Source: a virus
Reading direction: 5' to 3' (one strand)
Length of the DNA: 64,000 bases
Virus record (IMG/VR): IMGVR_UViG_3300017963_000203
Span: 32,001-96,000 of that record
The position numbers were made by a program, and so were the translations under genes. Of the stretch, positions 26,318 through 32,512 are shown piece after piece. A model generated the notes under the pieces. It searched no databases. It saw only the letters and a program-made list of their open reading frames with translations, and was not told the origin of the DNA. The first letter of the stretch is position 1. The number at the start of each line of letters is the position of its first letter.

Positions 26318-29300
26318 TCACTCCTCGAGCTTGTCCACAAGTTCCTGTAGAGCCGCACTCACGTCCCCGTCGAGATCGGAATGAACAACCTCTTCGGGCT
26401 CGACCATCAGGGACATTATAGAGTCGATCTCACGGGTGAGAGCCACCTTGGACATGTTCTGGTCCACTTTCGTGTTGAAGTACTTTCCGAAAGCGTACGT
26501 AGCAATGGGATGGCCACCAGGACCGATGTTGGAAACGGCTCCGAGCCCCGGGGCGGCCTTGAGTGTCTGGTGGGGCCGCTCGGCTACGAGCTGACCGATG
26601 AAGTCGTTCGCGTATTGAGGAGCCTTCCTGATGGACAAGAGCGTAGGCGTGAACACAATGGGCTGCTTTCCCTTCTTCCGCAGCTTCTTGTTCATGGCCT
26701 CCAGATTGTTCACGGAGATCACGTCGCCTCGGTGCACCCCGAACTCCACGTCTGCATCGCCCGGCTCGTCCACTTGGGCCCGTGTCGTGAGTGGATGGAT
26801 GGCAGTCTCGAAGATCTTCCGCTTCACCCGGACGCCGGCGTCGGTGAAGACCCGGCTCATGTCACCGATCATTCTCTCCTGAACGACGTGGATGTCGTTG
26901 GTGGCCGCGAGGACATCCTGAGGCTTGACAGCCCCGCCAGCCGAGAGCATCTGACCGGCTCGAACGGATTGACCCTTCTTCACGCCCAGACCGACCTCCT
27001 TGGGCACGAAGTGTCGCATTCCCGCGACACTCACGTTCCAGCCGCCAGCGGCGGAAGTCTCTATGCTGTCGATCTTTCCGCCCTGGAGTGCCAAAATGGC
27101 ACGGCCCTTCACATTGGTGGGCATCTCAAGGATCTGTTTCAGCCTGGGGTAGCCCAAACTTGCACCGCCCAGGGCGCCGCCCGTGTGAAACGTCTTCATC
27201 GTGAGCTGCGTTGCCGGCTCCGAAATCGTTTGACCGGCGAGTGTTCCGACATGGTAACCCACGTTGGGGAGGTTTCCGTTCTCCAACGGACCAAAGCACA
27301 TGGCGCAGACGCCCCGAGTGGCCTGGCACCGTAGGGGAGACCGAACCTTGATCTTCTTCACGCCGCGCGCCTTGAGGTTCCTGATGAGCTGCGGGTCGGT
27401 GATCTTCCCGCGGTATGGCCCACTGGCCACGACCCGGTCAAGCGCTTCTGGATCCGTGATGCCCATTTCGATACCCATGGTCGTCCCGCAATCCCGCGCT
27501 GAGATGGTCGTGTCCACTGTAGCGGCGATGAGCGCCTTTCCGAATGCGCCGGTGTCAGCCGTCGAAAGCGTACGGTCCATGAGGCCCTTCCGGGAGCCGG
27601 GGATCATGGCCCAGAAGCTGCCCATGTCCATGCCCTCGGAGAAGGACTTCTCGATGGGCACCTCGATGATCTTCCCCTCGTGATCTGTCACGGCCACGGG
27701 CGAGGCGACCATCTGGGTGATCATATTGGACTTCCCGAAAGCCCCGGAGAGTGGACCTCCGATGACCATCCGGTTGTCCACCTTGGCCTTGACCGCACGC
27801 TCCATCTCCTTCTGGGCCCGCCCGTAGGCCTTGGCGAAGCCCATGGTCTTGGCGTTCTTCTTCGCCTTGGCCAAAATGGAGTCGCGCTCGTTCTTCGGGA
27901 AGGAGAGATCGCCCAGGTCGAAAGACCATCCAATCTCGGTCACGTACTTGTTCCCGAGATCCTTGATCTTCGAAATCACCTGGCCGGCCACGGCCGGCTT
28001 CTTCCTGGCAACGTCATGGATGATCTTCATGAGCTTCCCCTTGTCGACCGAGATGTTTCCCGGTTTGAATCCGACAGGGAACGCCTGGTTGAAGATGATC
28101 TGCCCTGCGCAAATCCGATTCCCGTGAATTGACACCGCTTGATTGGCTTTGATGCGGCCGCTCCGGTACATCTGGAGAACCTCGTTCTCTGAGCTCGCCT
28201 TAGTGACCGCTGCGCCTTTCGGGGTGGTCATGAGGTAGACCCCGAGAACCATTTCCATCGATGGAGAGTGGATCAGGCTGTTATCCCGGGGACTGAAGAG
28301 GTTGTTGCTCGGGAGCAGATTTGTCGTAGCCTCGCGGCGAGCATCCTCCGACACCGGTACGTGGACCTGCATGGCGTCGCCATCGAAATCGGCGTTGAAC
28401 CCCTTCACCACGAGAGGGTTGATCTCGATGGCCTTACCCTTCGTGAGCATGGGCTTGAAGGAGAGAAGGCTGAATTTGTGGAGGGACGGGGCTCGGTTCA
28501 GCACGACCGGCCGCTCCCGGACTACGGCCTCGAGTGCGGAGAGGGCTGAAGGATCTCGCTTCTCGATCAGTTCCCTGGCCTTCAGTGGCGGATACCCGAG
28601 CATCCCCATCCTCTGGACGATGAAAGGCTTGTAGATGGTGAAGGCCATTTCCTCGGGAATCTTCGCCTCATCGATGCCGAGTTTGGGGTCCGGGATGATC
28701 GTGGACCGGCCGGTGAGGTCCTGCCTGCGCTTCAGCACACGACCTTGAAAGAGGCCGTACTTGTTCTGCTGTCCCTTGATGGTGGCCAGGAATCCCTTGA
28801 AATTCTGGCTTCTGGTCAGAGGCTCCTGCAACCCCACCAGCCCACGGACCGCACCGTAGAGCTGCGCCCGGAGTGGAGCAAGGTTCTTGTCGTCCACACC
28901 CAAGCTCTTGAGGTCCTTGATCTGGTTGTTCACCATGAGGACCTCTCGGTAGCCGTGTACGGGATCCGCCACGTTCAGCGTTCCGTCCGGATTGGGGTAG
29001 ATGGGGCGCATCTTGGCCGGAACGACGGGCACCTTCGAGTTGAGGTACGCCTTCGCCGGCGTCAGGTTCACAGCCTTGAGCGCACGGAGATATCGGAGCT
29101 TCTTGATGGCTACGTCACGCCGATCCCCCTTCAACCCGCTGACCTGGCGCCGCAAACTCCTCAGCTCTCCGTCCACGTCGATCTTCGATAGAAGAATCTT
29201 GAGACCTTCGCCGCCCGTCTTGTTCTGAGGTGCGTGATCGTGGGTGATCTCTCCCTCCGGCGTGACCCACAACGTGCCGTTGATGAGTCCGTTAAACTGC

Positions 29301-32300: not shown

Positions 32301-32512
32301 ACATCACCAAGAAGCCTGGAGGCCAGGGTCCTCCCCGTGGTCTTATACTTCTTGTGAAGCTCCGGATCTCCATACATGTCGGGGCTCGTGTTCGCCCACC
32401 GGAGGTTGGAGACTGAGATCGTGTTCCGCTCACCACTGATGGGGAACATCCTCTCGACACGATCCTTCAGATTTCTGAGGAGAGCGGCGAATCTCTCCTG
32501 GCTTACGATCAT
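26318..32512 (-). CDS. rpoBC: multisubunit-type DNA-directed RNA polymerase, beta and beta' fused in one polypeptide
   Basis: beta motifs GYNFEDGI, GDKLSQRHGGKG, KLRHQV; beta' motifs LNRAPSLH, NADFDGD (~28375-28396), EPATQLTMKTFHTGG; no stop at the junction near 29520-29580. Confidence 0.95.
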   Translation of the reverse strand: MIVSQERFAALLRNLKDRVERMFPISGERNTISVSNLRWANTSPDMYGDPELHKKYKTTGRTLASRLLGDVVITDTKNNKVLDRQLGHPILSVPHLTSKQSFIVGGKEVQIVNQIRLKPGTYTRYTADNNVETFINTAGGGYRVQFDRVRQVFRIRVGQSTYVYLYPILKALGVTDVDLRKIWGDEILQENRKYDRPAELAKLYKKMRPYADQPEGQEALAEAIGKFFASKPLDPNITKLTLGTRYSRIEPKVLVASSEKALALARGEVKADDTENLAYKSLHSVDDFIVEKLEQNVPTAERSIRFQIDRRPSVVDVLPPSLFTKPVQRFFTTSEFSRYSDQNNPLDMVGVQSLVTSMGEGGISSVHAVSDRLRALHPSHLGIFDPVQTPESSKIGINAHLALGSKKIGNDIGLTVINAKTGARETKKAFDLEDKVLAFNDEFDTTRTPPKARRDPVKARYKGEFKMIPARQVDYIVDSASKILSFAANAVPFVHTNSPNRILMASHHITQAVPLKDPDVPLVQSKFGARGYETAVGERIVPQAPVDGVVKRVTSKKITIQGNDGQTYTVPLHDHYPLNSNAFLNEKAIVKTGDRVRKGQPVADSDFTRNGALALGKSLRTGFMPYKGYNFEDGIVVSETAAKKLTSVHKHEMTLNLDSTISVGLPVFLAHFPAEAEGLDRSKYGPNGIVKTGAVLQMGDVAIPAVRKIKVHEEFSYASLHRSLKHQWQDVSVRWDSEYPAEVMNVVKTRKFITVYVKTEETLEVGDKLSQRHGGKGIVTMILPDKEMYHGEDGKPLDVLFNPSGVLGRANPGAYLEASAGKIAEKTGKPYLVQNFGGVADATEHIRQQLEANGLNRNSAERLHDPTTNKYHDNVQTGNLHFVKLRHQVSKKLSARGHTTYTHDESPAREPHASPMAIGMMELYSLLSSGGTAFLRDAATIKSQKNDEFWRAIQLGLPTPPPKSPFVVNKFMAYMKGAGINVKQEGKKLKALPLTDEDILDQSNGAITSPGVVRANDLAPEPRGLFDRGLTGGFDGNYWNHIDLEGPIANPLMDQAIMGVLSQPGRPFKRTQFNGLINGTLWVTPEGEITHDHAPQNKTGGEGLKILLSKIDVDGELRSLRRQVSGLKGDRRDVAIKKLRYLRALKAVNLTPAKAYLNSKVPVVPAKMRPIYPNPDGTLNVADPVHGYREVLMVNNQIKDLKSLGVDDKNLAPLRAQLYGAVRGLVGLQEPLTRSQNFKGFLATIKGQQNKYGLFQGRVLKRRQDLTGRSTIIPDPKLGIDEAKIPEEMAFTIYKPFIVQRMGMLGYPPLKARELIEKRDPSALSALEAVVRERPVVLNRAPSLHKFSLLSFKPMLTKGKAIEINPLVVKGFNADFDGDAMQVHVPVSEDARREATTNLLPSNNLFSPRDNSLIHSPSMEMVLGVYLMTTPKGAAVTKASSENEVLQMYRSGRIKANQAVSIHGNRICAGQIIFNQAFPVGFKPGNISVDKGKLMKIIHDVARKKPAVAGQVISKIKDLGNKYVTEIGWSFDLGDLSFPKNERDSILAKAKKNAKTMGFAKAYGRAQKEMERAVKAKVDNRMVIGGPLSGAFGKSNMITQMVASPVAVTDHEGKIIEVPIEKSFSEGMDMGSFWAMIPGSRKGLMDRTLSTADTGAFGKALIAATVDTTISARDCGTTMGIEMGITDPEALDRVVASGPYRGKITDPQLIRNLKARGVKKIKVRSPLRCQATRGVCAMCFGPLENGNLPNVGYHVGTLAGQTISEPATQLTMKTFHTGGALGGASLGYPRLKQILEMPTNVKGRAILALQGGKIDSIETSAAGGWNVSVAGMRHFVPKEVGLGVKKGQSVRAGQMLSAGGAVKPQDVLAATNDIHVVQERMIGDMSRVFTDAGVRVKRKIFETAIHPLTTRAQVDEPGDADVEFGVHRGDVISVNNLEAMNKKLRKKGKQPIVFTPTLLSIRKAPQYANDFIGQLVAERPHQTLKAAPGLGAVSNIGPGGHPIATYAFGKYFNTKVDQNMSKVALTREIDSIMSLMVEPEEVVHSDLDGDVSAALQELVDKLEE

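Follow-up and report, generated by a model that had tools for sequence, protein, structure and literature searches.

In the accessible text of Weinheimer and Aylward (2020; PMC7481178), the mReC lineage is described from metagenomic contigs of tailed phages whose RNA polymerase beta and beta' are detectable with cellular hidden Markov models (HMMs), form a clade apart from the cellular enzymes, and occur together with shared capsid and terminase genes. Here, we analysed a gene of this kind in a window of 64,000 nucleotides, corresponding to bases 32001-96000 of the 130,894-base IMG/VR virus record IMGVR_UViG_3300017963_000203 (68% complete according to CheckV). The gene encodes beta and beta' as a single chain of 2064 amino acids, hereafter referred to as RNAP. 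A previous reading of the window from its letters alone (the sequence-only reading) had proposed a compact, probably packaged polymerase at the head of a virion operon. Our analyses favour a minimal, sigma-paired, alpha-less and probably virion-carried single-chain RNA polymerase of an mReC phage, to which we assign a probability of roughly 0.6.

Large single-chain polymerases that are encoded among virion genes and injected together with the DNA have been described for crAss-like phages and for N4. The N4 virion polymerase is of the T7 type, and to our knowledge neither this enzyme nor that of the crAss-like phages uses a sigma-70 factor. The known virion polymerases (N4, crAss-like and the phiKZ virion sets) share a gene position in the head module. 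According to PMC7481178, the crAss enzyme is too diverged to be found by cellular HMMs, and in phages of the phiKZ/AR9 type one of two RNA polymerase sets is reported to be packaged into the virion (PMC7598289).

Results

The RNAP gene occupies positions 26318..32512 on the minus strand of the window and forms a single frame with an ATG start, 2064 codons plus stop and no internal stop codon, preceded by a ribosome-binding site (GAGGTGG) 6 nucleotides 5' of the ATG. Pfam domains Rpb2_3 (residues 339-403) and Rpb2_6 (544-901, 181 bits), as well as Rpb1_2, Rpb1_3 and Rpb1_5 (together spanning 1328-1914), all scored above cut-off, with only Rpb1_1 remaining sub-threshold; the order in the chain is a complete bacterial-type beta and then, directly, beta'. 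When searched against sequences from solved structures, the first 1030 residues matched bacterial beta (best E 5e-81), with HMMER aligning residues 92-971 to 105-1043 of the 1100-amino-acid cyanobacterial beta 8syi_C. Likewise, the C-terminal 1085 residues matched bacterial beta' (best E 1.7e-114), and residues 1100-1974 aligned to 171-1107 of a clostridial beta' of 1161 amino acids; a PDB sequence match to beta' at E 7.6e-115 was recorded as well. Residues 985-2064 were modelled with AlphaFold2 on the basis of 40 aligned sequences; this model reached a mean predicted local distance difference test score (pLDDT) of 83 and a predicted template modelling score of 0.68, and all 50 matches listed by Foldseek for this beta' model in the Protein Data Bank (PDB) were bacterial beta' (template modelling scores 0.78-0.84). 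Both the bridge helix and the trigger loop, which is short (TFHTGG) and has no SI3 insert, can be aligned with Salmonella beta'. Open reading frame, Pfam domains and alignment thus agree with the sequence-only reading that cellular-type beta and beta' motifs, including NADFDGD and the trigger loop, lie in one frame. The chain is also, as noted there, much shorter than bacterial RpoB plus RpoC, with 2064 amino acids compared to 1193+1199 in B. subtilis and 1342+1407 in E. coli.

Gaps were mapped in a MAFFT alignment of RNAP and 19 relatives with Salmonella RpoB and RpoC, using E. coli numbering. The beta part lacks residues 215-296 and 320-359, 932-1048, and 1126-1193, which we take to be lineage-specific inserts of proteobacteria, and is otherwise complete. 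At the junction, beta residue 1339 meets beta' residue 15 with no domain added. Absent from beta' are residues 64-88, 134-152, 554-570, 666-681, 698-711, 944-1100, and 1137-1183; the gap at 944-1100 corresponds to the trigger-loop insert and the one at 1137-1183 to the jaw region, and those at 666-681 and 698-711 fall within the rim helices of the secondary channel. The gap at 64-88 takes out all four cysteines of the zinc-binding domain. In the whole of RNAP, cysteines occur only at residues 1468, 1675, 1729, 1736, and 1739, and those of the second zinc site (Table 1) are invariant in 20/20 and 40/40 aligned relatives in two alignments. In the stretch equivalent to the zinc-binding domain, a CxC...CxxC cluster was present in none of 104 family proteins compared to 75 of 81 bacterial beta' frames. 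By these counts, loss of the zinc domain is a family-wide trait, in line with the earlier remark that no cysteine cluster is visible at the start of beta'. The flap tip, named in the sequence-only reading among possible missing modules, is retained in RNAP, although it is 4 residues shorter than, and diverged from, that of Salmonella, and the clamp helices align to Salmonella beta' without gaps. In addition, the rifampicin pocket of RNAP differs at the positions that correspond to beta 513, 526, and 531, where changes are known to confer rifampicin resistance. This altered pocket predicts an enzyme insensitive to rifampicin, so that phage transcription by RNAP should be rifampicin-resistant.

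Among 8000 candidates scored in the protein collection, 458 relatives of RNAP were found at E<=1e-3, and an alignment query returned at least 513 related IMG/VR contigs. All counts of viral loci given here rest on 80 of these at least 513 IMG/VR loci and all censuses of relative genomes on 21 large relatives; 17 of 121 proteins and 4 of the 80 loci that were unmatched by the catalytic pattern were excluded from the respective counts of the zinc cluster and of one-frame fusions. More than half of the sequences examined (69/121) are 2000-2099 amino acids long. Beta and the whole of beta' share one frame in 54/80 loci, with the others stopping shortly after the catalytic loop as in Salmonella phage Arash (nine), being cut by contig ends (nine), being otherwise split (four), or lacking a match to the catalytic pattern (four). 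Across these genomes, the one-frame fusion is the usual state of the mReC lineage. The active-site locus is single in each of the 21 large relatives, and there is one match in this record. Most of the longer family polymerases, many of them with 2300-3550 amino acids, hold intein or homing-endonuclease domains (PF14890, PF14528, PF05204, PF03161). The gene is a frequent target of selfish elements in the family, and the Arash-type split lies just past the catalytic loop.

The closest cultured relatives are Salmonella phage Arash and the Vibrio phages D69, D148, and D181, with 29-31% identity at 70-95% coverage; in the tree described below, the split Arash/Vibrio forms are a sister group of the fused forms. 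The match of RNAP to an AR9-type chain was weak (7s00_C, E 7.9e-15). Detectable with cellular profiles, encoded on a tailed-phage genome and separate from the bacterial clade, RNAP belongs to the mReC lineage, in keeping with its published description (PMC7481178). As one chain that occurs in a single copy alongside a sigma gene, it is apart from the phiKZ-like polymerases, as the sequence-only reading had surmised.

Searches of one genome for each of 185,579 species gave best matches of at most 31% identity among the at least 600 stretches listed. Among the 80 of these genomic loci that were retained, rpoB and rpoC are encoded by two different frames, with a few contigs having one of the genes only. 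The NCBIfam rpoB and rpoC models match RNAP at E values of 1e-98 to 2e-150, yet far below their curated cut-offs (TIGR02013, 331.1 bits versus 801; NF001616, 352.9 bits versus 896; TIGR02386, 502.8 bits versus 963.5). Megablast of window positions 20000-40000 against 50,697 phage records returned zero near-identical DNA. A maximum-likelihood tree (LG+G4, 44 rows, 1795 columns) was obtained by a quick search and left unrooted; it comprised bacteria of about a dozen phyla, with archaeal, eukaryotic, nucleocytoplasmic large DNA virus, and phiKZ-type rows left out. It split 22 phage from 22 bacterial rows with a support of 100 in the Shimodaira-Hasegawa-like approximate likelihood ratio test (SH-aLRT), and the dividing branch amounted to 0.77+0.47 changes per site. 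All 22 phage rows thereby stand apart, and the nesting inside a bacterial clade that would mark a recent capture was not seen; RNAP is, on these comparisons, no recent host capture. In the same tree, RpoB and RpoC of metagenome-assembled genomes labelled Alistipes and Coriobacteriaceae grouped with Clostridia, which suggests mis-binned public contigs.

Two Pfam models for alpha and a search for omega gave zero matches in this record, with 14/14 control genomes responding, and the alpha model found no match in any of the 21 large relatives (completeness of at least 90% in 15). This fits the earlier suggestion that the polymerase may work without alpha. The accompanying suggestion that it may also work without sigma is not supported, as the phage encodes a sigma-70-family protein of 320 amino acids (record positions 29961-30923, about 1 kb left of the window). 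Its regions r2 (36-39 bits) and r4 (42-44 bits) score over the Pfam cut-offs and region 3 below, and its best NCBIfam matches are of the RpoD/RpoS type, all under cut-off except for a superfamily model. The second-best NCBIfam match is MzaA of the MZA anti-phage system (92.7 bits versus a cut-off of 800), most likely due to general sigma-70 similarity. The Pfam region-2 model detected sigma in 12/21 large relatives and a profile of nine phage sigmas in 18/21, including 13/15 of those at least 90% complete; 8 of the 18 detections were part of the profile and match by construction, and 10 are new. Arash and D69 carry two sigma-like genes each (Gp10 and Gp196 in Arash). In this record, from which 32% of the genome is missing, a search for a second, Gp10-like sigma matched only the known sigma gene. 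A complex prediction for RNAP residues 1000-1400 with the phage sigma, run without controls, gave a score of 0.01 and a mark of 0.32, which speaks neither for nor against binding. The clamp helices and the flap tip, both sigma docking sites, are still present; we infer that the phage sigma binds RNAP rather than the host core.

As proposed earlier, RNAP heads its block of minus-strand genes, and the terminase lies downstream; the spike assigned to the same operon could not be confirmed, with a 1058-amino-acid open reading frame at 1493..4669 and most neighbours matching no PHROG or Pfam family. The RNAP stop and the following ATG overlap in TGAGATG, with GAGGAG just upstream, so that RNAP and the next gene are co-transcribed and in all probability translationally coupled. 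A portal homologue was found upstream on the same strand in 58/80 IMG/VR loci and a terminase downstream in 37/80, counts for which, as for the homologue of the 515-amino-acid protein (Table 1), the 10-kb flanks and the contig ends set a limit. The portal directly precedes RNAP in Arash and D69 and is next to it in most related loci; here, a plus-strand cassette lies between them.

Proteins of Arash particles from a sucrose gradient are listed in PMC10585845. In the accessible part of that source, Gp206, which comprises beta and the N-terminal half of beta', was the protein detected most, with 3516 spectra from 128 unique peptides that covered 100% of its length. Gp216 (40 peptides, 1210 spectra) and the sigma-like Gp10 (24 peptides, 467 spectra) were found as well; the second sigma, Gp196, does not appear in the particle table, and contaminant-like replication enzymes in the list had 2 to 14 unique peptides (PMC10585845). 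Together with the conserved portal-RNAP-terminase order, this proteome of a relative with about 30% identity makes the virion polymerase of the sequence-only reading plausible. Based on the Arash particles and the head-module position, we consider it rather probable that RNAP is carried in the virion.

A lone -10-like TATAGT, of which there are 7 copies in 131 kb, lies 32 nucleotides before the RNAP start. It was rejected as a shared promoter of the RNAP operon, since it does not recur before other minus-strand genes, and a consensus scan revealed no sigma-70-type promoter before RNAP. By contrast with 0.87 copies expected, the promoter-like word GTCAYRAGA-N4-TRRA occurs 8 times, always on the plus strand and before non-structural genes, and never before the RNAP operon. 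The reader of these words must therefore pre-exist RNAP-class expression. Copies at the plus-strand cassette lie at 32575, 33855, and 35799. tblastn gave zero matches to the Arash gp217 'helicase' after RNAP, and no tRNA genes were found in the 64-kb window.

Beyond the final conserved block of beta', which ends around residue 2011, an acidic stretch of 52-53 residues follows. As described in the sequence-only reading, this tail holds the word MSKVA near its start; as an extension, however, it is no longer than usual bacterial beta' tails, acidic tails of 20-130 residues being common among the 75 bacterial beta' compared. K-[TV]-A is found in 15/15 tail-bearing close relatives (P0001-P0015, at least 63% identical), with variable flanks. 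Two distant family members have acidic tails of other sequence, the remaining listed members end short and basic, and Arash and Vibrio D69 are without an acidic tail. In the AlphaFold2 model, residues 2014-2047 have a pLDDT <50, and short helices are formed by residues 2025-2035 and 2049-2063. In the MAFFT alignment, the last 15 RNAP residues (26321-26365, minus strand) resemble the word that ends the conserved part of the Salmonella beta' tail. Homology to the enterobacterial tail was nevertheless rejected, as even a loose form of this word fits only 1 of 75 other bacterial tails and the resemblance is probably due to chance.

Two short protein words recur in the virion module. The first, F-x-x-G-[FL]-x-D-E-L-x-K-x-[AG], has 15 copies in 131 kb, all in minus-strand (virion-module) frames and, in the window, at 326, 1318, 1468, 10030, 14135, 19256, 41587, 41910, and 42146 (all minus strand); this 13-residue word has the appearance of a portable tag for cargo or processing. 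The RNAP tail was rejected as a copy of it, with none of the 15 genome copies lying in RNAP and none being found in 121 family polymerases. The second, hydrophobic-x-K-x-[AG], is enriched in the proteins encoded at 23332..24879 (12 versus 2.3 expected), 17739..18992 (11 versus 2.0), 42801..43916 (9 versus 1.5), and 14284..15819 (9 versus 1.9), and an excess was also seen at 13283-13756 (minus strand). The enriched proteins lie 4 to 6 times over shuffled sequence (z 5 to 7). In contrast, RNAP holds 5 such words versus 8.0 expected, i.e., below chance, and portal, terminase, and major-head candidate show no excess. The enrichment fits a head protease with an unusual lysine preference.

Table 1 Features of the RNAP gene and its surroundings in the window
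Feature	Position	Strand	Remarks
Weak major-head match	10838..12028		
Weak head-protease match	14284..15819	-	E 2e-4
Large terminase	19943..21907	-	phrog_675, E 5.8e-51; Pfam GpA_ATPase
Head-module protein, 515 amino acids	23332..24879	-	Homologue downstream of RNAP in 47/80 loci
Next operon gene, ~475 amino acids	24889..26316	-	No family match; ATG one base past the RNAP stop
Acidic C-terminal tail, residues 2012-2064	26321..26479	-	Close subclade only
KVA word, residues 2022-2024 (MSKVA 2020-2024)	26441..26449	-	Candidate protease site
beta' module, residues ~1001-2011	26480..29512	-	Joins beta without linker domain; beta 1339 to beta' 14 absent
Second zinc site kept, Cys 1675, 1729, 1736, 1739	27296..27490	-	Aligns with the second site of beta'
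Catalytic NADFDGD, residues 1373-1379	28376..28396	-	Three Asp invariant in family alignment
Excised beta' zinc-binding domain, residues ~1024-1044	29381..29443	-	beta' 64-88 deleted; free of Cys
beta module, residues 1 to ~1000	29513..32512	-	Complete minimal bacterial beta without lineage-specific inserts
Rifampicin-pocket region, residues 330-362	31427..31525	-	Equivalents of beta 513, 526, 531 changed
Divergent spacer, 92 bp	32513..32604		Holds RNAP ribosome-binding site and lone minus-strand TATAGT
GTCATAAGA-N4-TGAA	In 92-bp spacer	+	Before gene starting at 32605
Plus-strand cassette	32597-38709	+	Separates portal block from RNAP
Portal	39099..40982	-	tblastn with Arash gp204: 27% identity, E 6e-60

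Discussion

In our proposed explanation, RNAP would be the only polymerase of a tailed mReC-lineage phage of about 190 kb, with a catalytic core that appears minimal: the inserts are absent, the zinc domain is excised, and rim helices of the secondary channel and jaw are shortened. The alpha dimer and omega would be dispensable, with the covalent beta-beta' join probably assuming the role of alpha in assembly, and promoters would most likely be recognised via the phage sigma-70-family factor or factors. Expressed together with the head genes (portal ... RNAP ... terminase), RNAP would probably be packed into the particle, allowing phage transcription in the next infection to begin without reliance on the host enzyme.

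Several points weigh against this explanation. Phage sigmas classically redirect the host core enzyme, and from the sequence either core, that of the phage or that of the host, could be the partner of the phage sigma. Sigma was unseen in 3/21 large relatives, two of which are at least 93% complete. With the record being 68% complete, an alpha gene may sit in the missing part, and alpha could also be borrowed from the host. The tree, which is unrooted and comprises neither archaeal nor phiKZ-type rows, is silent on the depth of the lineage. RNAP holds none of the 15 copies of the candidate cargo tag. The particle data come from Arash only, which is about 30% identical and has a split enzyme. 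In addition, the Arash preparation listed 116 proteins, including ribonucleotide reductases, ligase, and primase, and its authors allow for carry-over of abundant infection proteins (PMC10585845).

Other explanations were weighed as well. A recent capture of rpoB-rpoC from a host, or the assembly of bacterial DNA into the contig, would account for Pfam and PDB matches that are bacterial beta and beta'. It has practically no chance in view of an identity of at most 31% to any bacterial genome among the matches listed, scores far below every cellular family cut-off, a long and fully supported branch between RNAP and all 22 bacterial rows, and a gene flanked by portal and terminase across dozens of related contigs of viruses. 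A more serious competitor is that RNAP stays outside the virion: the host enzyme, possibly redirected by sigma, would read the RNAP operon as well as the early genes, RNAP itself would act only later, and the Arash signal would reflect carry-over of an abundant infection protein. The lone TATAGT before the RNAP start, the missing cargo tag, and the obvious replication enzymes in the Arash list, for which the authors themselves name carry-over (PMC10585845), can all be read in this way, as can the usual action of phage sigmas on the host core (general knowledge; PMC7598289, in its accessible text). Such an enzyme is harder to reconcile with the top spectra and 128 unique peptides of Gp206 versus 2 to 14 for the contaminant-like enzymes, with a gene inside the head module in 58/80 loci, with a consensus scan that found no sigma-70-type promoter before RNAP, and with only one polymerase per genome; we regard it as fairly unlikely.

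The sequence-only reading combined a virion polymerase needing neither alpha nor sigma with an acidic tail that serves as a packaging handle and is cut by the head protease at K-V-A. No alpha was found in this record or the 21 large relatives, and a cleavable handle would suit the K-[TV]-A word kept in all 15 tail-bearing close relatives despite variable flanks, its place in a flexible, low-confidence stretch of the model before a short helix, the hydrophobic-x-K-x-[AG] enrichment in several head-module proteins (z 5 to 7), and the weak head-protease match at E 2e-4. Against the combination stand the sigma-70-family gene of this phage and of 18/21 large relatives, and, for the handle, the lack of such a tail in most family members and in Arash, the very source of the particle data. 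Moreover, with 5 words versus 8.0 expected in RNAP, one in the tail is unremarkable, no copy of the tag lies in RNAP or in 121 family proteins, and acidic C-terminal tails are ordinary in bacterial beta'. Taken as a whole, this combination is highly improbable. The KVA word is accessible, and a protease of such a preference is a reasonable proposal. That the tail is cut at KVA or serves packaging is, taken by itself, decidedly unlikely, and tail processing at KVA cannot be general for the family.

Returning to a sigma-paired, virion-carried RNAP, an extension that we put at somewhat less than even odds is that the particle delivers a ready holoenzyme, consisting of the single-chain core and a packaged sigma, with a second sigma acting later and the tail maybe being trimmed at K-[TV]-A. 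Transcription in the new host would then start at phage promoters in a sigma-dependent manner and without the host polymerase, the second phage sigma would switch the same enzyme to later genes, and in the subclade a head protease preferring Lys at P3 may additionally trim the tail at K-[TV]-A. If true, no injected RNA polymerase that depends on sigma-70 would have been known before, and no natural holoenzyme of bacterial type would be smaller. Should a 2064-amino-acid chain and a small sigma indeed suffice, then alpha, omega, the beta' zinc domain, full rim helices, and the jaw would all be dispensable, and such a minimal holoenzyme would give structural studies and synthetic biology a compact enzyme to work with. 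The family is large (at least 513 IMG/VR contigs), and some of its members, namely Arash and the Vibrio D69 group, are in culture, which makes these ideas directly testable. The window itself adds a further member to a published, barely studied lineage, and its own contribution is modest: the acidic tail with K-[TV]-A in the subclade and a portal-RNAP link that is broken by the plus-strand cassette.

Among cellular enzymes, the beta/beta' fusions of the Helicobacter and Wolbachia type have the same order in one polypeptide as RNAP. They are about 2840-2890 amino acids long and operate with alpha, omega, and a host sigma. RNAP scores far below the cut-offs of the fusion models (NF007172, 501.5 versus 5372 bits; NF011417, 482 versus 4632 bits). 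Like the mReC contigs, the record analysed here is that of a tailed phage with terminase, portal, and a weak major-head match, in which beta and beta' are found by cellular-type profiles. Unlike here, PMC7481178 treats beta and beta' as two subunits and uses 'fused' for crAssphage only; its accessible text does not contain the words sigma and virion and does not describe the one-frame fusion, the zinc loss, the pairing with sigma, or the portal-terminase placement. In the openly searchable literature, i.e., outside subscription journals and supplements, neither the one-chain form nor the loss of the zinc domain nor the pairing with sigma was found described. Like the Vibrio group, Arash (OQ632216; Gp206 and Gp216) resembles this phage in having beta and beta' fused at their junction, a portal gene upstream of the polymerase, and sigma genes of its own. 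In contrast to RNAP, the chain of Arash and D69 is split past the catalytic loop into 1525 or 1527 plus about 606 amino acids with genes between them, and the catalytic word of Arash gp206 and Vibrio D69 VPHD69_0261 is AADYDGD instead of NADFDGD. The phiKZ/AR9 enzymes are likewise phage-encoded kin of beta/beta' without alpha and omega; according to the accessible text of PMC7598289, however, they are built from 4-5 polypeptides, occur in two sets per genome, and have no recognisable sigma homologue. If RNAP is indeed injected, it would represent a fourth kind of virion polymerase after those of N4, phiKZ, and crAss, and the only one with a sigma.

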